A stretch of DNA of 28,551 nt from Phycisphaerales bacterium (GCA_028288875.1 JAQGHK010000536.1:1-28551); one strand, 5' to 3'. Counted from the first letter of the stretch, positions 18,148 to 28,551 are shown. Notes: generated from the sequence alone by a model not told the origin. Numbers and translations are program-made.

Positions 18148-18716
18148 ATGATTCACGACCCATAAGAGGATTCCATCAGCCGGCTTGTCGATGTAGAGGC
18201 GATTGGCCTAAGTGTTCTTTTGAGCGCGAATCTTGCTCCGTCAAATTACATTCGCGCAGCGCAGGTTAAGTGCTGGCCAAGTATAAGTTTGCAACGAAAA
18301 AACGAGCGCCGCGAGCGCGCCTAACTTGCCTAGACCGCCATGTGACTTATGGCCGGCGATGCATGAGCATGTAATGGGTTGATGGCCGGCGGTCGTTCGC
18401 GACTTCGCCGCCACACGCGGCAGGGATGGGCCGACCGATTCTGCAGATTCTTCGGTGCTCCGAATTACATCAACCGCATGGTCGTGGCTCATCGCTTCTC
18501 CAATCAAAATCGCCCGCACAGCCTTGGTGGTGCGTCGGCTTCTGGAACTACCGAAATTTTATCGCCGGCCTGCCGAAAAGTCGGCCAAAAAACAGGCGTT
18601 TTGGCGAAATTCCGGCCGCCGTCCAAACGCTGCGGCCGCCCCTGCCAAACTCGGGATCGGATTCCCACGCAACCCGCGGCTTGGTCGCGCGTCCAACGTC
18701 ATGGAGAATTCGAGCC

Positions 18717-20261
18717 ATGCGGATCGCAGAAATTAAAAGTCGTAGCCGGGCGTTTGCCGCTGCCGTCGTTCTAGGGGCAGCGCTCGCCCGCGGGCAGGCC
18801 CTGCCCGCGCCAGAGCCGCGGTTTGCCTTGACCGTCTATTCCAACGCCGACCCGGCGACGTTTGACCCCAAGGGCGACCCGCAGCAGAACACCTATCCGC
18901 CGCAGCGCGCCTTGCCCGGCTACGGCGTGGTGCGCGAGCGGCGGGAGATCGATCTGAAAAGCGGCATCAACACGCTCCGCTTCAGCGATGTGGCCGCCGG
19001 CATCGATCCGACGACCGTCAGCTTCGAAAGCCTCACCGACCCGGCCGGCACGGCGGTGCTGGAGCAGAACTACGAGTTCGATCTGGTCAGCTCGGCCAAG
19101 CTGCTGGAAAAGTACATCGACAAGGCGGTCGTGGTTGAACGGCCGATGGGCGACGGGAAGATCGAAACGATCGAAGGCACCCTGCTGTCGGCCGCGCAGG
19201 GATTGGTCATCAAAACCCCAGATGGCGGCGTGCGGATCATCAACGGCTACAGCGGCATTCGCGTGGCCGACGCCGCGGGGCTGATCACCAAGCCCACCCT
19301 CGTCTGGCAACTGACGGCCACCAAGGAAGGCAAGCACGACGCGCTGGTGACTTATCAAACCAGCGGCCTGACCTGGCGGGCGGATTACAACATCGTCCTG
19401 AACGAAAAGAACACGGCCGCCGACGTGGGCGCGTGGGTGACGATGGTGAACCGCAGCGGCGTGAATTACCCGGACACGCGCCTGAAACTGGTGGCCGGCG
19501 ACGTGCAGCGCGTGACGCCGCCCCAGCGCGCGGAGGTTCAGTTCGCCGCCCGTGCCATGAGGGATGCGGCAGAGGCCGGCGCCGGCGGCTTCGTCGAAAA
19601 GTCCCTGTTTGAATACCACCTGTACACGCTCGGCCGAACCACGTCGCTTCCAGACAATTCCACAAAGCAGATCGAGCTGTTTGAGAAAAAGCTCGACGTG
19701 CCGGCGAAGAAAGTGTTCGTCTATTACGGCCTGCCCGAACAGTGGCGTGGATTTTACTCCCCTCAGCCGTACCAGAACCGCGACCTCGGCATCGAAACGA
19801 ACAAGAAAGTCGACGTCTATATCTCGATCGACAACAAGGAAGCCGCCGGACTGGGCATCCCGCTGCCGGCCGGGCGGGTGCGCGTCTATCAGCGGGACGA
19901 CACTGAAAAGACGGCCGAATTCGTCGGCGAAGACGTCATTCAGCACACGCCCAAGGACGAGAAGCTGCTGATCCGTGTCGGCAGCGCGTTTGATATTGTC
20001 GGCGAGCGGAAGCAGACGGATTTCACGGTGAACGTCGACGGCCACGTCATTACCGAGTCGTTCGAGATCAAGCTGCGGAACCATAAGAAAGAGGCCGTTT
20101 CCGTGATCGTGAAGGAGAACTTGTTCCGCTGGGCGAACTGGGAGATCACGGCCAAGAGCGACGCCTTTGAGAAGCAGGACTACCGCACGGTGCATTTCCC
20201 CGTCGACGTGCCTGCAGACGGCGAAAAGGTCGTCACGTACACCGTGAAATACACGTGGTAG
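18717..20261 (+). CDS. DUF4139 domain-containing exported protein
   Basis: Signal-like N-terminus, LTVYSN, VLEQNYEFDLVS..KLLEKY, YQTSGLTWRADY, LFEYHLYTL, LGIPLPAGRVRVY, GSAFDI; start ATG 18717 with GGAG upstream. Confidence 0.85.
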   Translation: MRIAEIKSRSRAFAAAVVLGAALARGQALPAPEPRFALTVYSNADPATFDPKGDPQQNTYPPQRALPGYGVVRERREIDLKSGINTLRFSDVAAGIDPTTVSFESLTDPAGTAVLEQNYEFDLVSSAKLLEKYIDKAVVVERPMGDGKIETIEGTLLSAAQGLVIKTPDGGVRIINGYSGIRVADAAGLITKPTLVWQLTATKEGKHDALVTYQTSGLTWRADYNIVLNEKNTAADVGAWVTMVNRSGVNYPDTRLKLVAGDVQRVTPPQRAEVQFAARAMRDAAEAGAGGFVEKSLFEYHLYTLGRTTSLPDNSTKQIELFEKKLDVPAKKVFVYYGLPEQWRGFYSPQPYQNRDLGIETNKKVDVYISIDNKEAAGLGIPLPAGRVRVYQRDDTEKTAEFVGEDVIQHTPKDEKLLIRVGSAFDIVGERKQTDFTVNVDGHVITESFEIKLRNHKKEAVSVIVKENLFRWANWEITAKSDAFEKQDYRTVHFPVDVPADGEKVVTYTVKYTW

Positions 20262-20452
20262 GCCGCCGAGAAGCGCAAGGCGGCAAAGTAGACCCGCTTT
20301 ATTGCATCGGCAGCGGCACTCCACCGGGAAAAGCAAATAACCGTTGACCGCGGTGCTGTGGAAAATTAGCCTCTGCGGTTTGTTCGCATGGTGATCGGAC
20401 TTTTGGCTATTGCCGAGGCCGGCGCTTTACGGTTCTTCAGGGGCGGGGGTTC

Positions 20453-22435
20453 ATGAGAGGTCTTCGTCAAACGCACACGCGTGCGGTACTTCTGTTGGCC
20501 GGTGCGTTTGTCGTGTTAGCCATCGCGCGGCCGGTGGCGGCGGATACGACCGTCACCGCTGCAAACCTTCCGCTGAAATCCAGCGGCTCGGCCAGTGGGT
20601 CGAGCTGGAACCTCTCCACCAACGGCTATCTCGGCACGTATGTTCGCCTGGACAAGAGCGGCACGCTGAAGCTCACGATGAACGCGCTGGGCACCAGCTC
20701 CAAGGGCGTTGCCCCGGACCTGACGCTGGCGATCGCGGATTACAAGAAGTCCTTTGCCGTCACGAGCACGACCGGCGGCTACTACACATACACGTCGCCG
20801 ATCCTGCCGGCCGGGACGTACTTCGTTCGCACGCAGTTGGACAACAGCCGGACGGTTCGCCTGAACAACGCGCCGGTGACGCTTACACCGAAGCTGACGC
20901 TCAAGAGCCTGACGGTGGGCGCGAACGCGAAGGTGCTCAGCAGCAATACCGACGACAACGTCCGCGCGGCGGCCAATACGTATATCGATAACTTCCGCCA
21001 AGGCACGGCGACGCTGAAAATTCCCGGCCTGACCGCCGGCCAGGCCGTGCACGTGCGGCTGACGAACAATGCCTTCAAACTCGGCACCTATGTGCCCGGG
21101 ACCAGCCTGAACGACGTGAACGATTACCTGGGCAGCAACGCGCCGGCCGGCTCGCACGCAGCCAATTTTCAGTCGTTCATCAATGGGCGATTCAACTCGC
21201 TGGTCGCTTCCAATGCCGCAAAATGGGGATCGAACGAACCGAGCCAGGGCAATGTCGACATGGCCGGCTCGGACGCGATGATGGCCTATGCCCGCTCGCA
21301 CGGCATGCAGGCGCGCATGCACAACCTGCTCTGGGGCGACCAGCAGCCGGCGTTTGTGAACGACCTGGTCAGCCGGGCGCAGAACGGCGACGCGGGTGCG
21401 AAGACATCGCTCGTGAACGCGATCTCCCAGCGCATCACGTACACCGTCAGCTACAACAATTACATCAACGGCGCGACGCGCGGTAACACGTTCACGCAGA
21501 TGGACGTGCTGAACGAATCGCTGCACAACAGCAAGTATTGGAGGGTGCTGGGCGCATCCGGCGTGGCCGACATCTACAAGAAGACGGCCACGGCGCTGGC
21601 CGGCATTGGATCGAACGCGAAGCTGTATCTGAACGAGTACAACGTGCTGCAGTACTCGCCGAGCACGTATAGCACGAGCACCGGTACGCTCAGCGGCAGC
21701 GACTCGTACGCGAACTGGTACCGCCAACACATCACCGATGTGAACAACGCGGGCTTCGCCGCCGGCGGGACGAAGAACGTCGTGGGCGGGATCGGCATGC
21801 AGTATTACTCGACCACGTCGGGCAATATCCCCAGCGTCGGCACGATGCAGAAAGCGCTGCAGAACTTCTCCATTGAAGGCCTGCCCATGTCCCTGACGGA
21901 ATTCGGCGTGCAGGATACCGTCCGCGACGGCACGGCCCCGCAGATCATGGATGACGCCATCCGAATGATGATGGGCACGGCCGGCGTTGACACGTTCATG
22001 TACTGGGGCTGGGACCCGGGCGCGACCGATCGCCTCGGCAGCGGCTCCACGCTGGTGAATTCCAATTGGCGAAGGGCCGACGGCAGCTGGGATCTGACGG
22101 CTGTCGGGAAACGATTCGAATACCTGTACGGCCGTGGCCTGGATCCGACCGCGCCGGGGGCGAACGCCGATGGATCGAATCCGAAGCCGTGGTCGACGGA
22201 TCTCACGCGCACCGTGAACGCCGACGGCACGATTAATTTCAAAGGCTTCTACGGCGACTACGCGGTTGATGTCGGCGGGAAGACGTACAACTTTACGTTC
22301 AACAAAGGAACGAACAGCTACACGCTCCAGTCGAGCGCAGGCCGGCTGTTTGCGTCGGACATGCCAGAGCCGGTGGGGCTGGCGATTTTCGGTATGGCCG
22401 GCATGCTCGGCCTCCGGCGATCACGGAAGTGTTAG
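20453..22435 (+). CDS. GH10 family glycoside hydrolase (endo-1,4-beta-xylanase-like) with PEP-CTERM anchor
   Basis: Signal peptide; NAAKW, RMHNLLWG, DVLNE (acid/base), LNEYN, GIGMQ, LTEFG (nucleophile); C-terminal MPEPVGLAIFGMAGMLGLRRSRK. Confidence 0.88.
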   Translation: MRGLRQTHTRAVLLLAGAFVVLAIARPVAADTTVTAANLPLKSSGSASGSSWNLSTNGYLGTYVRLDKSGTLKLTMNALGTSSKGVAPDLTLAIADYKKSFAVTSTTGGYYTYTSPILPAGTYFVRTQLDNSRTVRLNNAPVTLTPKLTLKSLTVGANAKVLSSNTDDNVRAAANTYIDNFRQGTATLKIPGLTAGQAVHVRLTNNAFKLGTYVPGTSLNDVNDYLGSNAPAGSHAANFQSFINGRFNSLVASNAAKWGSNEPSQGNVDMAGSDAMMAYARSHGMQARMHNLLWGDQQPAFVNDLVSRAQNGDAGAKTSLVNAISQRITYTVSYNNYINGATRGNTFTQMDVLNESLHNSKYWRVLGASGVADIYKKTATALAGIGSNAKLYLNEYNVLQYSPSTYSTSTGTLSGSDSYANWYRQHITDVNNAGFAAGGTKNVVGGIGMQYYSTTSGNIPSVGTMQKALQNFSIEGLPMSLTEFGVQDTVRDGTAPQIMDDAIRMMMGTAGVDTFMYWGWDPGATDRLGSGSTLVNSNWRRADGSWDLTAVGKRFEYLYGRGLDPTAPGANADGSNPKPWSTDLTRTVNADGTINFKGFYGDYAVDVGGKTYNFTFNKGTNSYTLQSSAGRLFASDMPEPVGLAIFGMAGMLGLRRSRKC

Positions 22436-23610
22436 GCGGCCACGCGCCGCGTCCGCCGCAGGAGCACCGCAAAGCCGACCAACGAAAGCATCGCCGGCTC
22501 GGGAATTAAAATCGATCCGGCGAGATACGGGACGAGGAATTCGGCCTTCGGTGTGCCGAGGCCGGTGACCAAGTCATACCCCGTTGTTGCCGGAATCGGA
22601 TTGCTGCCGGTCGTGATGTCATTGAACGCCAGGGCGTAGTACGGCGTGTTGTAGAGCGCGTAGAGCATGGTCAGCGTCTGATCACCGGTCAATGATTCCA
22701 GCCCATTGGCGGCACGACCTTCGTTGGCTAACGCAATCAGGCCAGCCCACTGCGGCGCGCCGGCGCTCGTGCCGCCAATCTGAATGAAATTGGCGTCGCC
22801 GGTGCCGGTGCTGCCGTTGAGCTGGTTGTAGATGAGGAAACCTGTTTGCGGATCGGCGTCGTAGGCGACATCAGGCACGGTCCGATCGGGACCGTCATGG
22901 ACAGCGTCTTGGTACGCAGGTCGAGTGAAACTTGGACTGACACCACCGCCGGACTTGCTCCACGCCGTTTCGCCCGTGGCGGTGATGGTGGTGCCGCCGA
23001 CGGCCAGGACATGCGGCGAAGTCGCCGGGTAGTTCGCCTGTATGCCGCGATCGCCCGAGGCGGCCACGAAGCTCACTCCGGCGTGATTCGTTGGCTGCGT
23101 GAAGGCTTCATCGAAAAAGCTGTAGCCGCCGTAATCCTGACCGGCGAAGCTCATGCTGATGGCCGACACGCCCGGGACGGATTTGGCGTAACGAACGGCG
23201 GTGAACAGATTCGCATACGTTGGCGATTCGGCGGCGACGACCAGAATATTCGCCTGCGGCGCGATCGCATGGGCGTACTGGATATCGAGCGCGCTTTCGT
23301 ACTCCCAATCGTGAGAGCCGGTGGGTTCCTGAGACGGCAGCGTGCTGCCGCCCGTCTGGTTGACGATCGTCAGCGATGGCGCCGGCGTGAGGCCGAAGTG
23401 CGCGTCGAAGTACGCAAGGTCGGACGCAGTGCTGGGATCGGTGTAAGCGACGATCACGGCGATCGTCTGCCCGGCGCCGGTATTGGAAAGTTGATCGAAG
23501 CCATAAAACGAGCGGATGCTCGACGGCGTTTGGGCGGCGCCGAACGACGACGCAACAGCAATCGCCGACGCGAGACCGGCCGAAGCAATGCAACACGCCG
23601 ATCGCCGCAT
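22432..23610 (-). CDS. S53 (sedolisin/kumamolisin-like) serine peptidase with PEP-CTERM anchor
   Basis: ESALDIQ (Glu/Asp), ASGD (oxyanion Asp), GGTSAGAP (Ser), Ca-site DITTG...GYDLVTGLGTP; C-terminal IPEPAMLSLVGFAVLLRRTRR; SD AGGA. Confidence 0.9.
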   Translation of the reverse strand: MRRSACCIASAGLASAIAVASSFGAAQTPSSIRSFYGFDQLSNTGAGQTIAVIVAYTDPSTASDLAYFDAHFGLTPAPSLTIVNQTGGSTLPSQEPTGSHDWEYESALDIQYAHAIAPQANILVVAAESPTYANLFTAVRYAKSVPGVSAISMSFAGQDYGGYSFFDEAFTQPTNHAGVSFVAASGDRGIQANYPATSPHVLAVGGTTITATGETAWSKSGGGVSPSFTRPAYQDAVHDGPDRTVPDVAYDADPQTGFLIYNQLNGSTGTGDANFIQIGGTSAGAPQWAGLIALANEGRAANGLESLTGDQTLTMLYALYNTPYYALAFNDITTGSNPIPATTGYDLVTGLGTPKAEFLVPYLAGSILIPEPAMLSLVGFAVLLRRTRRVAA

Positions 23611-23790: not shown

Positions 23791-25728
23791 TTAGAACGGA
23801 ACGGCTTGGTCCATCCAGTCGTCGCTGCGGAGCACCTGCTTGCGGTTGAAGCGGGCGAGGCGTTCGGCGCGGGCCTGGGCGAGGTTGATTAGGCGCTGGC
23901 CGCCGATCGCGCGCCACATTTTGCGGAAGCGCGGGGCATGGCGGATGAACAGTTCGTCCTCGGCGCTGGCAAAGGTCTGGGCACAGCCGGGATCGCCCTG
24001 ACGAGCGGCGCGGCCGTAGAGCTGGCGATCGATGCGGCCGCTGGGCTGGGGCTCGGTGTTGATCACGTGCAGGCCGCCGAGTTCGACGACGCCGCGACCG
24101 AGGTGAATGTCGGTCCCGCGGCCGGCCATGTTGGTGGCGACGGTGATTTTGCCGATCTGCCCGGCTTCGGCGATGACGTTGGCTTCCTGTGCGTTCTGCG
24201 CCGCGTTCAACACGCGGTGCGGCCGGCCGAGCGCGGTGAGGCGCTTGGACAGGTCTTCGCTGGCATACACGCTGCGCGTGCCGACGAGGACGGGAATACC
24301 CTTGTCGTTGAGCTCAATAATGCGCTCCATGATCGCTTCGTATTTATCCGCGGCCTTATCGAAAAAGCGCAACGGCAACTGAGTGCGAATGCACGGCTTG
24401 TTCGTCGGGATCTTCACGATCGGGCGCGTGTAGATCTGCCAGAATTCGGGCGCGCTTTCCCAGGCCGTGCCGGTCATGCCGCCCATTTCGGGGTATTGGC
24501 GGAAGAAACGCTGGAAGCTGATGCGCGCCAGGTTTTCCTTGTCGGCGGTGACCTTCACGTCTTCTTTGATTTCGATCGCCTGATGCAGGCCGTGCCGCCA
24601 GCTGCGGTCGGCCATCACGCGGCCGGTGAATTCGTCGATGATCTGAACCTTGCCGTCCGGGTCGATCAGATAATGCTCGTCGCGATGGAAGCAGTGCTTG
24701 GCCGTGAGAGCCTGCTGCACGAGTTCTTCGCGCCGGCGACTGCCTTTCCAGAAACCACTGGTATCGCTGGCGCAGATCTCATCGAGGTGGTCGCGGCCTT
24801 GCTCGGTGAACTCCACCTGGCGCACTTCAGTGTCGATCGTGAAATCGACATTCTTGATCATCAGGTCGGCCAGCGTAGTGGCGGCGCGGTAACGCTCGGC
24901 GTTGGGTTCGTCATCCGGCGAGTTGCTGATGATCAGCGGCGTGACGGCTTCATCAATCAGCAGGCTGTCGGCCTCATCAACAATCACCTTCGCCAGGCCG
25001 GGCACCAGCACACTGCTGCGCATGGCCGAACCGCCGAGCAGCGTGACGGCCGTCGCGCTGCTGCTGCGAAGCGTGCCGAGCATGATCTGGTCGCGCAGGA
25101 AGTCGGCCACCAGTTCTTTGCTGGTGACGTAAACGACGTTGCGACGGTAGATGTCGATGCGGTCGACGGCATCGGTATCGTGAATCACATAACCGGCCTT
25201 GTGGCCCATCATGCGATAAAGCGGCGTCATCAGTTCGGCGTCGCGCTGCACCAGGTAATCATTCACCGTGATGATGTGCACCGGCTTGCCGGAGAGCGCC
25301 ATGATGCTGGCACCGACGGCGGCGGTGAGGGTTTTGCCCTCGCCGGTGGCCATCTCGGCGACGGCGGCTTCGTGCATCGCCATCGCGCCCATCAATTGGA
25401 CGAGATAGGGCCGCTTGCCGATCGTGCGGACGGCGGCCTCGCGGGCGAGCGCGAACGCGTACAACAACTTCTCGTCTTGCAGCCGGCCCAGCCGCGCGAG
25501 CACGCGCACTTCTTCCACTTCCTCTTTGAACTTCGCGTCGGCCAGCTTCTGAACGTCCGGCTCCATCGCCTCGATCAGCTCGGCCTGGCGCTTGAGGCGC
25601 GGCAATACGCGGCGGCGATTCTTCACCCAGCCCGTCGCGGCGTGCGCGGGGATATCCAGGCCCTTGAGCTCAGGCGCTTTCACCCGGCGGGCATCGAAGA
25701 CGTTGTACAGTTCGGCGGCAGCGGTCAT
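23791..25728 (-). CDS. Truncated SecA paralogue (NBD1, preprotein-binding domain and NBD2 only); probably not the housekeeping SecA
   Basis: MATGEGKT, TVNDYLVQRD, DEADSLLIDEA, IIDEFTGR, GLHQAIEIKE, GMTGTA, VATNMAGRGTDI, RIDRQLYGRAARQGDPG. Only 645 aa; it ends at the start of the scaffold helix (RKQVLRSDD). Confidence 0.92.
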   Translation of the reverse strand: MTAAAELYNVFDARRVKAPELKGLDIPAHAATGWVKNRRRVLPRLKRQAELIEAMEPDVQKLADAKFKEEVEEVRVLARLGRLQDEKLLYAFALAREAAVRTIGKRPYLVQLMGAMAMHEAAVAEMATGEGKTLTAAVGASIMALSGKPVHIITVNDYLVQRDAELMTPLYRMMGHKAGYVIHDTDAVDRIDIYRRNVVYVTSKELVADFLRDQIMLGTLRSSSATAVTLLGGSAMRSSVLVPGLAKVIVDEADSLLIDEAVTPLIISNSPDDEPNAERYRAATTLADLMIKNVDFTIDTEVRQVEFTEQGRDHLDEICASDTSGFWKGSRRREELVQQALTAKHCFHRDEHYLIDPDGKVQIIDEFTGRVMADRSWRHGLHQAIEIKEDVKVTADKENLARISFQRFFRQYPEMGGMTGTAWESAPEFWQIYTRPIVKIPTNKPCIRTQLPLRFFDKAADKYEAIMERIIELNDKGIPVLVGTRSVYASEDLSKRLTALGRPHRVLNAAQNAQEANVIAEAGQIGKITVATNMAGRGTDIHLGRGVVELGGLHVINTEPQPSGRIDRQLYGRAARQGDPGCAQTFASAEDELFIRHAPRFRKMWRAIGGQRLINLAQARAERLARFNRKQVLRSDDWMDQAVPF

Positions 25729-25842: not shown

Positions 25843-28050
25843 TTAGCTTTGCGAGCTTTGCATCGTCAGCTGTTGGAACCAGCGGTACGCCTGCATGGCC
25901 AGCGGCTCGGGGTTGTTGCTCTTGAAGCGGACGTAGGCGCGCTGGCCGGGATAGAACAGCTCTTCGCCCGTTTTTTCGTCGCGAATCGGATTGTTGAAGA
26001 TCATGCGCGCTTCGTAATTCTGTGCTGCGGTGGTGGTGCCTTTGGGGTCGCTGGCGTCCGGAGCCTCGGTGCCGCCGCCGGCGTGCGTGAGGGCGGCCGA
26101 GCGAACTTCACGCTTGGCGGCCGGGCCGATGCGGATCTTGGTCGTCACTGGGACCACATGGTTGATATCGCCGGCCACGCGCAGCTCGGCGTGGTAGTTG
26201 CCGATGCCGACGTTATTCAGCCGGTCACGATCGGCCTGATCGATCAGGACGAACGCCTCCAGATCCTTCACCTGCGTCACCTCGGCTACTTCTTGCGCCT
26301 TGGGCAGGAACGAGCCTTTCAGGTTATCGATCTGCGGCGCGACTACGCGGCCGTTGATGGGCGAGCGGATTTCCAGCTTGCTGACTTTGTCTTTCTGCTC
26401 GTTGAGGATTTTAGTTAGCCGGGTTTGGCGTTCCAGATCAATCCCATACTTCGCGGCGTCGCCGACACGGCTGCTCTGCAGTTCCATGCCGACAACTTGA
26501 AGGTCGATCGCGCTGGTCAGCAGTTTGTTCGATTCGTCGTCGTTACGAAGCACGATGAGCAGCTGGCCTTGCTTCACGACTTCGCCGTCTTTGACGAGCA
26601 CCTTGTCGACAAAGCCGGGCGTTTCCACGCGCAGGGTCTGTCGGGCTGCGGCTTCAAGCACGCCTTCGGCGCGAACGGTAACGGGGAATTTCACGATACC
26701 GACGAGCGCGATCAGGATCGCGGCGACTGCAACGCTGAAGGCGACCGCCCGGCCGCGCTTGCGGTGCAGTTCGGGCTCGGTGGCCAGATACTTGGCGAAT
26801 TTGAACAGCGGGAAGATGGCGAAGGTGCCGAACGCCGTCGCGCCCATGATCAGGCCGACAACCTTGATTTCCTGTGGCAGCGTGAAGAACAGCATGTACG
26901 CGATCGCCAGGCTGACGAACACGCGGTAGCCGCTGCTGGCAATGGCGTAGACGAATAGTTCGATGCGCTGCTTCAGCGGCGGCAGCGGCTGCTGCTGCTT
27001 CACGCGGAAGATGTGCCGCTTGACCAGGCCCAGCGCGTATTCGCTGGCCTTGCGCTGCAGGTTCGGGATTTCCCAGAAGTCGGACAGGATGTAATAGCCG
27101 TCGTAACGCAGCAGCGGGTTGGCGTTGAAGACGATCGTGCTGACCGAGGCGATCAGCATCGTGTTGTAAGCGAGTTGATTGACCAGATTCGCGCCGCTGC
27201 CGTAGGTGGCTTTCCAGATAAAGGCGCAAATGGCGGCGACGAACAATTCAAAAATCATGCCGCCCGCACCTACGAACACGCGCTTCCACTTATTCGGGAA
27301 CGCCCAGGCCGTGCTCGCATCGACATAAGGCGTCGGCACGAGCACCAGCAGCATGATGCCCACTTCATGCACCTCGCCGCCGAAGCGACGACAGCTGAAC
27401 GCGTGGCCCATTTCGTGAATGAACTTGATGACGACGAACGTCACCCACAGCCAGGCCCAGTTACCCGGATCGATGGCGTTCTTCGCGGCGCCCTGCAGTT
27501 CGGTCCACATCGGAGCGATGCTGATGACCGCGGCGATGATCACGCCCAGCCACACGATCGCCCCAAGCCAGCTGAGCAGCAGGCGGATCGGCGGCATCCA
27601 GGTTTTGATGAACATGTCCGGATCCCACACGGGAATCCGCGGGAACAGGATGTTCATCAGCTTCTGCTGCATCTGCCGCTGGTTGTGCATCTTCTGCCGC
27701 TTGAGAACGACGGCCGAGTCGGGGGTGACGTCGGTCTCGATCAAGTTGGCGGCAAAGAGCTGTGACAGGATTTGAATGACTTCAGGTTGCGTGGGCGCGT
27801 CATCGGCGAGCTGGCCGCCGACGAGGTCCCAGGCTTCGCCAATGGTGCGGCTGCCATCGAGCAGGCCGACGAAGCGGTACGCCGGATCAGAAAGGCGATG
27901 GAACTGATTGCCGGCCGGATCGCGGACGACATACCAGCGCTCGCCGCGGAAATACTGACGGCTGATCTGCGCCGTCGGCCGAAGCCGCGGGCGCAGTTGG
28001 ACGACGCGGTACCAGGACTCCGAAAATGTGGGACGAAGGGCGAGGGTCAT
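25843..28050 (-). CDS. Fusion protein: PqqD/RRE-like N-terminal domain, M50 (site-2) metallopeptidase, HlyD-type periplasmic adaptor
   Basis: HEMGH (residues 212-216) and NANPLLRYDG M50 motifs with several TM helices. N-terminal winged-helix-like segment YVVRDP...LLDGSRTIGEAW...ILSQLFAANLI. C-terminal ETPGFVDKVLVKDGEVVKQGQLL, a coiled hairpin, and IRSPINGRVV. Confidence 0.88.
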   Translation of the reverse strand: MTLALRPTFSESWYRVVQLRPRLRPTAQISRQYFRGERWYVVRDPAGNQFHRLSDPAYRFVGLLDGSRTIGEAWDLVGGQLADDAPTQPEVIQILSQLFAANLIETDVTPDSAVVLKRQKMHNQRQMQQKLMNILFPRIPVWDPDMFIKTWMPPIRLLLSWLGAIVWLGVIIAAVISIAPMWTELQGAAKNAIDPGNWAWLWVTFVVIKFIHEMGHAFSCRRFGGEVHEVGIMLLVLVPTPYVDASTAWAFPNKWKRVFVGAGGMIFELFVAAICAFIWKATYGSGANLVNQLAYNTMLIASVSTIVFNANPLLRYDGYYILSDFWEIPNLQRKASEYALGLVKRHIFRVKQQQPLPPLKQRIELFVYAIASSGYRVFVSLAIAYMLFFTLPQEIKVVGLIMGATAFGTFAIFPLFKFAKYLATEPELHRKRGRAVAFSVAVAAILIALVGIVKFPVTVRAEGVLEAAARQTLRVETPGFVDKVLVKDGEVVKQGQLLIVLRNDDESNKLLTSAIDLQVVGMELQSSRVGDAAKYGIDLERQTRLTKILNEQKDKVSKLEIRSPINGRVVAPQIDNLKGSFLPKAQEVAEVTQVKDLEAFVLIDQADRDRLNNVGIGNYHAELRVAGDINHVVPVTTKIRIGPAAKREVRSAALTHAGGGTEAPDASDPKGTTTAAQNYEARMIFNNPIRDEKTGEELFYPGQRAYVRFKSNNPEPLAMQAYRWFQQLTMQSSQS

Positions 28051-28168: not shown

Positions 28169-28551
28169 TTAAATCCACAGTTTCAGGCGCGTCCACTCCC
28201 AGAGCCGGTGCAGGCCGTGCCAGTAGAGCGGCTTCTTTTCGACATCGATCCGGGCTTCGCCGAGCTGGCCAGGCTGCCACTTGGCATCGAAGCCATCGAT
28301 GCGGGCGTACACGCGGAACGTGTTGGCCGCTTCCTTGGTTTCGCCCAGCGGCACGATGCGGGTGATTTCAACCGCGTGGCGTTCGTTCGGGCTGCTCTTG
28401 GTGGCCAGGGTGCCGGTGCTGCCGACTTTCAGAAGCTGAATGTCACGTTCGTTGACGGTCAGCTCGCTCTGCAGGTCACCTTTGTGGCCGATGGGGGCGA
28501 TTTCCATGAGGGCGTCGCCCTCTTTGACTTGGCTGTTGATCTTTTCTTTCA
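28169..28551 (-). CDS. HlyD/efflux periplasmic adaptor protein, C-terminal part (5' end outside the window)
   Basis: The frame is open to the window edge: ...KEKINSQVKEGDALMEIAP...ELTVNERDIQLLKVGSTG...WQPGQLGEARIDVEKKPLYWHGLHRLWEWTRLKLWI*. This is a lipoyl-like half plus a beta-barrel tail typical of adaptor proteins. ATG 28507 in the track is internal. Confidence 0.85.
   Translation of the reverse strand, partial: KEKINSQVKEGDALMEIAPIGHKGDLQSELTVNERDIQLLKVGSTGTLATKSSPNERHAVEITRIVPLGETKEAANTFRVYARIDGFDAKWQPGQLGEARIDVEKKPLYWHGLHRLWEWTRLKLWI

Follow-up and report, generated by a model that had tools for sequence, protein, structure and literature searches.

A fused RRE-M50-HlyD protein as the putative leader-reading core of an ABC-less exporter for ExLExRxLLA-leader proteins in a soil planctomycete

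What might a bacterium export with a single membrane protein that combines a leader-binding domain, an intramembrane protease, and a periplasmic adaptor? The question is raised by one gene on a 28.5-kb contig of a Phycisphaerales bacterium (GCA_028288875.1, JAQGHK010000536.1:1-28551; contig C112), which was analyzed over its whole length of 28,551 nucleotides and is called the window below; the source assembly is a 79%-complete metagenome-assembled genome of 713 contigs. The gene encodes a recognition element for ribosomally synthesized and posttranslationally modified peptides (RiPPs), or RRE, followed by a protease core of the M50 family and an adaptor of the HlyD family, and we refer to the product as the fusion. 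We favor, as a reading that is probable rather than secure, that the fusion is the leader-reading, leader-cutting core of a type-I-like exporter that lacks an ATP-binding cassette (ABC) protein and whose cargo carries an N-terminal ExLExRxLLA leader. This reading draws on the architecture of the fusion, the conservation of its catalytic site, the synteny of the surrounding cassette, and the co-occurrence and adjacency of leaders and cassette.

Architecture of the fusion protein

A first-pass annotation, made from the sequence alone, had described a three-domain protein at 25843-28050. An open reading frame (ORF) of 735 amino acids (aa) with an ATG start does occupy this interval and lies on the minus strand, which that annotation had left unstated. 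The residue ranges that it had given for the three domains all agree with the Pfam matches and structure models, from which the following layout was drawn (TM, transmembrane; S2P, site-2 protease).

25843..28050, minus strand: RRE-M50-HlyD fusion gene (P0001), 735 aa, ATG ORF
27970..28050, minus strand: N-terminal extension RPTFSESWYRV..LRPRLR, residues 1-27, a conserved stretch before the RRE
27736..27969, minus strand: PqqD-like RRE, residues 28-105, predicted to be cytoplasmic (Pfam PqqD, AlphaFold2 model, structural alignment)
27580..27735, minus strand: basic linker helix and short strand leading into TM1, residues 106-157 (full-length model)
26686..27579, minus strand: M50 (S2P-type) membrane core with seven TM helices, residues 158-455 (Pfam, NCBIfam, model, hydropathy)
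27403..27417, minus strand: HEMGH, residues 212-216, in TM2, with zinc ligands H212 and H216 and catalytic Glu E213 (invariant in 50/50 relatives)
27097..27126, minus strand: NANPLLRYDG, residues 309-318, the second S2P motif, in which an Asp supplies the third zinc ligand (motif search)
26695..26757, minus strand: last TM helix, the membrane anchor of the adaptor, residues 432-452 (hydropathy, model)
25846..26685, minus strand: periplasmic HlyD-type adaptor, residues 456-735 (Pfam, NCBIfam, model)

The fusion has over 5,000 matches of comparable length in the protein database, and the gene is therefore real and widespread rather than a chance ORF. The best 120 relatives are 96 to 50% identical across the full length, and common labels among the best relatives are "putative peptide zinc metalloprotease" and "HlyD family adaptor." The closest are annotated as Tepidisphaeraceae (Phycisphaerae, Planctomycetota). 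Among DNA datasets, the gene is best matched in a soil metagenome, which is probably the sample it came from, and no RNA dataset was listed as containing it. The N-terminus of the protein, MTLALRPTFSESWYRV, is conserved from residue 5 onward. Conservation differs among the domains, with a mean identity within the family of 89% for the RRE, 66% for the M50 core, and 37% for the HlyD part; counts of invariant residues given below rest on an alignment of 50 full-length relatives.

Because a profile search of the N-terminal domain against PDB sequences was weak, reaching PqqD only at an E value of 0.16, comparison of folds was needed to place the domain. Pfam PqqD (PF05402) matches residues 40 to 104 over model positions 2 to 67 of 67, with an E value of 0.009 and a score of 16.8 bits against a gathering cut-off of 23.4, and 47 of the 50 full-length relatives match it at an E value of ≤0.01, the best at 1.4e-5. 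The AlphaFold2 (AF2) model of residues 1 to 135 (m0954eddc6129; predicted local distance difference test [pLDDT] score, 78) has strands at 28-34, 37-43, and 50-53, followed by helices at 55-62, 70-84, and 88-100; this is the winged-helix layout of the RRE class, a three-stranded antiparallel sheet and then three helices. VIA-align superimposed the domain on TbiB1 with its bound leader (Z score, 8.9; 84 aa; 3.0 Å) and on PqqD 5sxy (Z score, 8.4; 89 residues; 2.5 Å). Further matches obtained with Foldseek and VIA-align cover nearly all catalogued RiPP enzymes that bear an RRE and include the RREs of ThcOx, LynD/TruD, PbtF, CteB, MccB, and MibB and those of NisB, MadB, SuiB, TglI, and TbtB. The first-pass annotation had staked its reading on a PqqD-type winged helix, or RRE fold, at about residues 35 to 105; both the model and the structural alignments display that fold, and the matches in 47 of 50 relatives bear it out.

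The top structural match of the domain is the C-terminal winged-helix-like domain of GdmN (residues 572 to 665; PDB 7vzq/7vzu; Z score, 11.1; 87 residues; 1.9 Å). GdmN is an ansamycin carbamoyltransferase, and NovN has a matching C-terminal domain as well. As the GdmN domain outscores every RRE in this comparison, the GdmN/NovN C-terminal domain may be an unrecognized RRE-like module.

The nearly invariant residues of the RRE lie in its third strand (N48, F50, R52, and L53) and third helix (P86 to Q88, L95, and L98), the two elements with which RREs bind leaders. Several invariant Arg and Asp residues of the domain could pair with the invariant E, E, and R of the leader described below. Co-folding of the N-domain alignment (A3) with the leader alignment (A4) gave a score of 0.01 against a mark of 0.32 and weighs neither way. 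In the extension that precedes the RRE, residues R6 to V16 are invariant among the 50 relatives, and R15, L23, and R24 are invariant across phyla; model confidence (pLDDT) is low at residues 1 to 9. Residues 1 to 27 may serve to dock the short SecA protein encoded next to the fusion or may form part of the leader groove.

Pfam Peptidase_M50 (PF02163) matches residues 203 to 308 with 29.8 bits against a cut-off of 27.2, and all 50 relatives match it. The full-length structure model (pLDDT, 84) contains seven TM helices, at 161-192, 195-222, 254-282, 289-309, 359-390, 393-424, and 432-452, preceded by a linker with a helix at 112-135, a strand at 138-142, and a helix at 145-158. The HEMGH motif sits inside the helix spanning 195-222, as the M50 family requires, and H212, E213, H216, N309, P312, D317, and G318 are invariant in the 50 relatives. 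A polytopic M50 domain at residues 160 to 450 with an intact zinc site, and E213 as the catalytic Glu, had both been read from the sequence in the first-pass annotation and stand.

The loop before the last TM helix, KYLATEPELHRKRGR, is strongly basic (six K/R residues within 416-434) and would be cytoplasmic by the positive-inside rule. Given this loop and the seven predicted TM helices, we infer an N-in, C-out topology, under which the RRE and zinc site would face the cytoplasm and the adaptor would lie in the periplasm. The anchor helix coincides with a hydropathy peak of 2.87 over residues 435 to 453. Beyond it, Pfam HlyD_3 matches residues 561 to 615 (26.9 bits; cut-off, 22.2), Biotin_lipoyl_2 and HlyD_D23 match too, and the NCBIfam models RND_mfp and type_I_hlyD also find this part. 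The adaptor is modeled as a lipoyl domain, a short alpha-hairpin at 504-557 (2 × 25 residues), and a beta-barrel, with the strands of the sandwich and barrel at 458-502 and 560-711. The Pfam match and this succession of anchor, lipoyl domain, hairpin, and barrel agree with the periplasmic adaptor proposed earlier for residues 455 to 735.

A conserved cassette with a probable SecA-like motor

If the fusion is an exporter core, its genomic neighbors should say what drives it and to what it connects. Three genes of the window adjoin or follow it on the same strand.

28169..28549, minus strand: C-terminal 126 aa of a GAF-HlyD adaptor, upstream of the fusion, the gene being cut by the contig end (Pfam HlyD_3, E 6.6e-9)
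23791..25728, minus strand: short SecA paralogue, 645 aa, downstream of the fusion (Pfam SecA_DEAD, SecA_PP_bind, P-loop_SecA)
22432-23610, minus strand: S8 subtilase, 392 aa, directly after the short SecA, with an ordinary Sec-type signal peptide

The GAF-HlyD fragment is 91% identical to the end of a 651-aa GAF and HlyD protein in a related locus, L002. The short SecA comprises the DEAD motor, the preprotein cross-linking domain, and a second RecA-like domain, without the C-terminal domains; a full-length SecA ORF (1356 aa) is encoded elsewhere in the genome, and the short paralogue is likely the motor of the cassette. The full cassette, consisting of a small HlyD protein, GAF-HlyD, the fusion, and the short SecA, is found in L002 (96% identical) and in L003 (50% identical). 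In a set of 80 loci drawn from the genomes of different species, the next gene downstream of the fusion is the short SecA in 57-58 of 62 testable cases, and the next gene upstream is GAF-HlyD in 61 of 64. The cassettes of the window, L002, and L003 contain no ABC gene. Since the cassette ATPase is SecA-like and an ABC gene is missing, the system is not a classical type I secretion system. No gene for a TolC-type outer-membrane channel (OEP) lies within the window, and about ten OEP genes are located elsewhere in the genome.

The same gene set in the same order (HlyD, GAF-HlyD, M50-HlyD, and short SecA_DEAD) was described by Kamneva, Poudel, and Ward (PLoS One 2015; PMC4452313) as a secondary SecA_DEAD locus recognized by comparative genomics, for example, META1p2399-2402 of Methylobacterium extorquens AM1. 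The fusion corresponds to their "Cluster 1" Peptidase_M50/HlyD protein; three members of this locus are present in the window (GAF-HlyD as a fragment, the fusion, and the short SecA), and all four are present in L002. That study, conducted in silico only, suggested that the locus acts in type-I-like secretion, SecA being the ATPase and the M50 protein a possible membrane component. It called the M50 similarity weak, made no mention of PqqD or an RRE, and named no substrate or signal.

The cassette also bears on a quite different role for the fusion. Some M50 proteases, RseP and SpoIVFB among them, work in regulated intramembrane proteolysis, and extracytoplasmic function (ECF) sigma genes lie 6 to 10 kb upstream in one related locus, as would suit a signaling or quality-control site-2 protease whose substrate is an anti-sigma factor or a membrane protein that has stalled, while its HlyD- and PqqD-like parts only sense the state of the envelope. 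We regard such a role as very improbable. No conserved sigma/anti-sigma pair adjoins the gene in the 80 loci, where its partners are two adaptors and an ATPase; a Pfam scan of the fusion protein found no PDZ or CBS domains; and the co-occurrence and adjacency of leaders described in the next section would be left unexplained.

The S8 subtilase ends in a PEP-CTERM-like anchor, IPEPAMLSLVGFAVLLRRTRRVAA, and its position is taken in L003 by a 1608-aa Gly/Ala/Thr-rich protein ending VPEPASL...RRRRRP. Both PEP-CTERM neighbors were considered as cargo and rejected on the ground that their signal peptides are of the ordinary Sec type; moreover, only the closest relatives have kept the S8 gene. Convergent to the cassette, a 611-aa DUF4139 protein and a 660-aa GH10 xylanase-type enzyme are encoded at 18426-22435 (plus strand), and the same pair flanks the cassette in L002.

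ExLExRxLLA leaders and their association with the cassette

What the exporter might carry is indicated by a leader with the pattern [ILV]-E-x-L-E-x-R-x-L-[LMF]-[AST], which occurs in at least 65 ORFs of this genome, about 18 aa after the start (for example, C25:5102-7264, C370:7483-10626, and C621:13945-15717). The stretch before the motif is polar, with a median net charge of +1 and no hydrophobic core. The leader ORFs of this genome have a median length of 590 aa; 12 exceed 1000 aa, and 11 have RTX repeats. Extracellular-type domains were found in 9 of 10 sampled ORFs, among them RTX, S8 with dockerin, M10 (matrixin), glycoside hydrolase family 88 (GH88), carbohydrate-binding module family 96 (CBM96), and calpain-like domains. 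Because most members are ordinary-sized enzymes, the cassette route is suggested to be a general secretion pathway in this genome. Most other genomes searched have one to five strict leader matches, far below the at least 65 found here, which suggests a lineage-specific expansion of the clientele of the pathway in Tepidisphaeraceae.

The existing NCBIfam model for such leaders, NF012209 (LEPR-8K), gave one match over its cut-off in this genome and ten at an E value of ≤10. It is too narrow for these leaders, and we therefore built profiles of our own: A4, of 32 residues, from 20 leaders of this genome, and A5, which was trained without Verrucomicrobiota. Each profile was applied to a sample of 200 genomes, those of Planctomycetota being at least 85% complete. 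In Planctomycetota (A4), leader matches were present in 16/54 fusion-positive and 4/146 fusion-negative genomes (Fisher P of 2.5e-7), and in Verrucomicrobiota (A5) in 13/46 fusion-positive and 2/155 fusion-negative genomes (P of 8e-8), although both P values overstate the association because related genomes are not independent. The fractions themselves are underestimates, since A4 missed leaders that a regular expression found in distant genomes, such as that of locus L079. In cassette-bearing genomes of other phyla, weak A4 matches proved to be true N-terminal leaders in 19 of 20 fetched cases, mostly on giant ORFs of 1,300 to 8,700 aa.

A5 had one recurring class of false positives, ORFs of about 530 to 560 aa that match model positions 2 to 20 only, all above an E value of 0.01. 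This conserved protein occurs in many cassette-free Verrucomicrobiota genomes at E values of 0.02 to 0.09 (e.g., G295:C56:3366-3422 and G379:C140:4086-4142), and its matches look like a systematic false positive arising from a basic N-terminal stretch.

Leaders are also found next to the cassette. In 7 of the 13 Verrucomicrobiota genomes that have both leader and fusion, a leader ORF and the fusion are no more than about 5 kb apart (chance P of ∼5e-13). In four genomes (G389, G308, G374, and G305), the small HlyD (not detected in G308), GAF-HlyD, fusion, short SecA, and leader ORF follow one another on one strand, with a gap of 300 to 400 nt between the short SecA gene and the start of the leader ORF; two of the four leader ORFs encode 18,984 and 9,178 aa. 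The longer of them (L125; G389:C1:3960259 onward) is followed immediately by a second leader ORF, of 6,574 aa. Leader ORFs of 19,216, 13,828, and 6,237 aa were noted in G269. Among planctomycetes, leader ORFs adjoin the cassette in L057, L080, and L054, and the single leader match of genome G204 is a 5,606-aa ORF next to its cassette. A link between the fusion and proteins with an LExRxLL-type leader had been offered as speculation in the first-pass annotation; the leaders of this genome, their co-occurrence with the fusion, and their adjacency to it now lend it strong comparative support and make it the best supported part of that interpretation.

Two variant loci, L129 (G398:C1:5143500-5157000) and L130 (G317:C6:179000-192000), encode a distant paralogue of the fusion (27 to 28% identity), and no short SecA or GAF-HlyD gene was detected within about 6 kb of it. 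Leader ORFs nevertheless flank the fusion on both sides at 3.3 to 5 kb (3.7 to 5 kb in G398), which makes the fusion the constant neighbor of the leaders. In G398, the fusion gene overlaps with one for a TolC-type OEP. Also encoded near the fusion in the variant loci are a LuxR-type regulator and a Wzt-like ABC ATPase.

These loci help to decide which part of the cassette would read the leader. It is conceivable that the cassette exports leader proteins and that the reader is another component, either the GAF domain of the large adaptor or the short SecA through its preprotein cross-linking domain, in which case the PqqD-like domain would dock the motor, gate the protease, or bind a small regulatory peptide, and the M50 domain might still trim. 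The short SecA does keep SecA_PP_bind, the large adaptor does have a cytoplasmic GAF domain, the N-domain resembles the GdmN domain in structure more closely than any RRE, and the invariant part of the N-terminal extension (residues 5 to 27) has no assigned role. We nevertheless think this assignment unlikely. In G398 and G317 the leader ORFs accompany a fusion with neither candidate reader detected within about 6 kb; the RRE is the most conserved domain of the fusion, which fits the reading of an equally conserved leader; and MpaP, a homologous RRE-protease compared below, is described as leader dependent. Reading of the leader by the RRE of the fusion therefore remains the assignment that we prefer.

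Relation to known systems, proposed mechanism, and meaning

A known relative of the RRE-M50 part comes from a peptide pathway. In MpaP (bioRxiv 10.1101/2023.03.08.531785), an intramembrane site-2 protease carries an RRE at its N-terminus, and the protein is described as an RRE-dependent leader peptidase for daptides, the leaders of which carry an N-terminal acidic ELExMEAP motif. This motif resembles the ExLExR of the leaders studied here. The corresponding NCBIfam model, NF041824 (daptide_HExxH), aligns with residues 21 to 415 of the fusion over positions 1 to 369 of 379 (E value of 4.7e-43). MpaP and the fusion thus share the RRE-M50 order over an end-to-end profile alignment, on which ground the RRE-M50 module is, by sequence, a homologue of MpaP. 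It is not an equivalog: the score of 147.8 bits lies far under the equivalog cut-off of 300, and the daptide context (short Thr-ending precursors, decarboxylase, aminotransferase, and methyltransferase) is absent from the window and from the 80 related loci. The neighbors of the fusion in the window are instead adaptors, the short SecA, the S8 protease, and the GH10 enzyme. Score and genomic context together place the fusion outside the daptide family. MpaP also lacks an HlyD domain, which the fusion has together with a SecA-like motor partner, and its substrates are daptides, whereas the likely substrates of the fusion are whole proteins of 200 to >18,000 aa.

A second RiPP leader peptidase model, NF058609 (YydH/LiaK), gave a weak partial match at residues 171 to 334 (E value of 8e-11; 42 bits against a cut-off of 225). 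YydH/LiaK, RseP, and SpoIVFB have in common with the fusion an M50 core with HExxH and an NxxPxxxxDG-type motif; they differ in having no RRE or HlyD fusion, in not sharing its architecture free of PDZ and CBS domains, and in genomic context.

With RREs known so far mainly from RiPP pathways, and with two RiPP leader peptidase families as its best NCBIfam matches, the fusion might be thought to mature and export small ribosomal peptides, like MpaP or YydH/LiaK, from precursors encoded elsewhere, the link to large proteins being incidental. We judge this quite improbable. Besides scoring far under both equivalog cut-offs, the fusion is accompanied by no RiPP tailoring genes in the window or in the 80 related loci, its partners being adaptors and a SecA motor of a type that suits long polypeptides. 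Moreover, what comes directly after the cassette in several genomes is a leader ORF of 1,000 to 19,000 aa, an arrangement hard to ascribe to chance.

The exporter that we favor instead finds its nearest functional analogue in the peptidase-containing ABC transporters (PCATs). In PCATs of the colicin V CvaAB-TolC type, an N-terminal leader is recognized and removed by a protease built into the inner-membrane exporter, which works with an HlyD adaptor and TolC. The parts are unrelated: PCATs use a C39 cysteine peptidase, ABC domains, and a double-glycine leader, where the proposed system would use RRE and M50 domains, a SecA-like ATPase, and an ExLExRxLLA leader, and the adaptor is fused to the protease only in the proposed system.

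By this analogy, the cytoplasmic PqqD-type RRE would capture the short, nonhydrophobic N-terminal leader of the cargo. The M50 active site, facing the cytoplasmic side of the membrane, would clip the leader, probably at or just after LL[AST][AG], where conservation stops. The short SecA would then push the chain, N-terminus first, while the HlyD domain of the fusion and the two other adaptors would bridge the periplasm to a TolC-type outer-membrane channel. The system would thereby be a counterpart of a PCAT/CvaB-type exporter in which RRE and M50 replace C39 and a SecA-like ATPase replaces the ABC domains. In this genome, at least 65 proteins appear to use the route, with proteases, glycoside hydrolases, RTX-repeat proteins, and beta-propeller proteins among them, and in other phyla its users would mostly be a few giant proteins.

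Several points weigh against this reading, in addition to the shared ancestry of the sampled genomes. A leader match at an E value of ≤0.01 was obtained in only about 30% of fusion-positive genomes, and about two thirds had none, partly because a 32-residue profile has poor sensitivity; conversely, six fusion-negative genomes do have leader matches (G002, G024, G106, G183, G280, and G372). In Tepidisphaerales, leader genes show no enrichment around the cassette, being so numerous across the genome, and none lies in the window, as the first-pass annotation had also remarked. The PqqD match of the fusion protein itself is below the Pfam gathering score. The evidence for leader binding by the RRE and for leader cleavage by the M50 domain, both of which we infer from sequence and comparison, is indirect. 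Classical site-2 proteases have membrane helices as substrates, and the leader is not hydrophobic; nor are M50 cores known to act as protein-conducting channels.

The leader itself has been reported before. It corresponds to the planctomycete-specific signal peptide RRLxxExLExRxLLA of Studholme et al. (2004), as that work is cited in PMC8567305, and to the NCBIfam family LEPR-XLL/LEPR-8K (NF012209); PMC8567305 reports the motif in 8 of the 10 longest proteins of Tuwongella. The giant Chlorochromatium proteins Cag_663 and Cag_665, which a 2026 preprint on giant LEPRxLL proteins describes as having no known transport signals, have it as well. Our literature search returned no published link among PqqD/RRE, M50, HlyD, and SecA or between the leader and the locus. 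The pieces were thus published separately, the signal in 2004, the locus in 2015, and an RRE-site-2 protease fusion in 2023.

Taken at its widest, the proposal makes the fusion the signal receptor and signal peptidase of a distinct SecA-driven, TolC-coupled, ABC-free secretion class, one that would read a short acidic/basic N-terminal leader with a RiPP-type recognition element, would be a general route for at least 65 enzymes and adhesins in Tepidisphaeraceae, and would elsewhere carry the largest known bacterial proteins (up to ∼19,000 aa); we put this wider claim at even chances. If it is true, three orphan observations would join: an export signal of 2004 without a pathway, a locus of 2015 without cargo, and an RRE that reads whole proteins. 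The RRE, so far tied to small-peptide natural products, would here read a signal on whole proteins. The secretion of giant surface proteins by bacteria of the Planctomycetota-Verrucomicrobiota-Chlamydiota (PVC) group and others would be explained, much of what this soil planctomycete secretes would be accounted for, and secretomes would become predictable from a simple motif.

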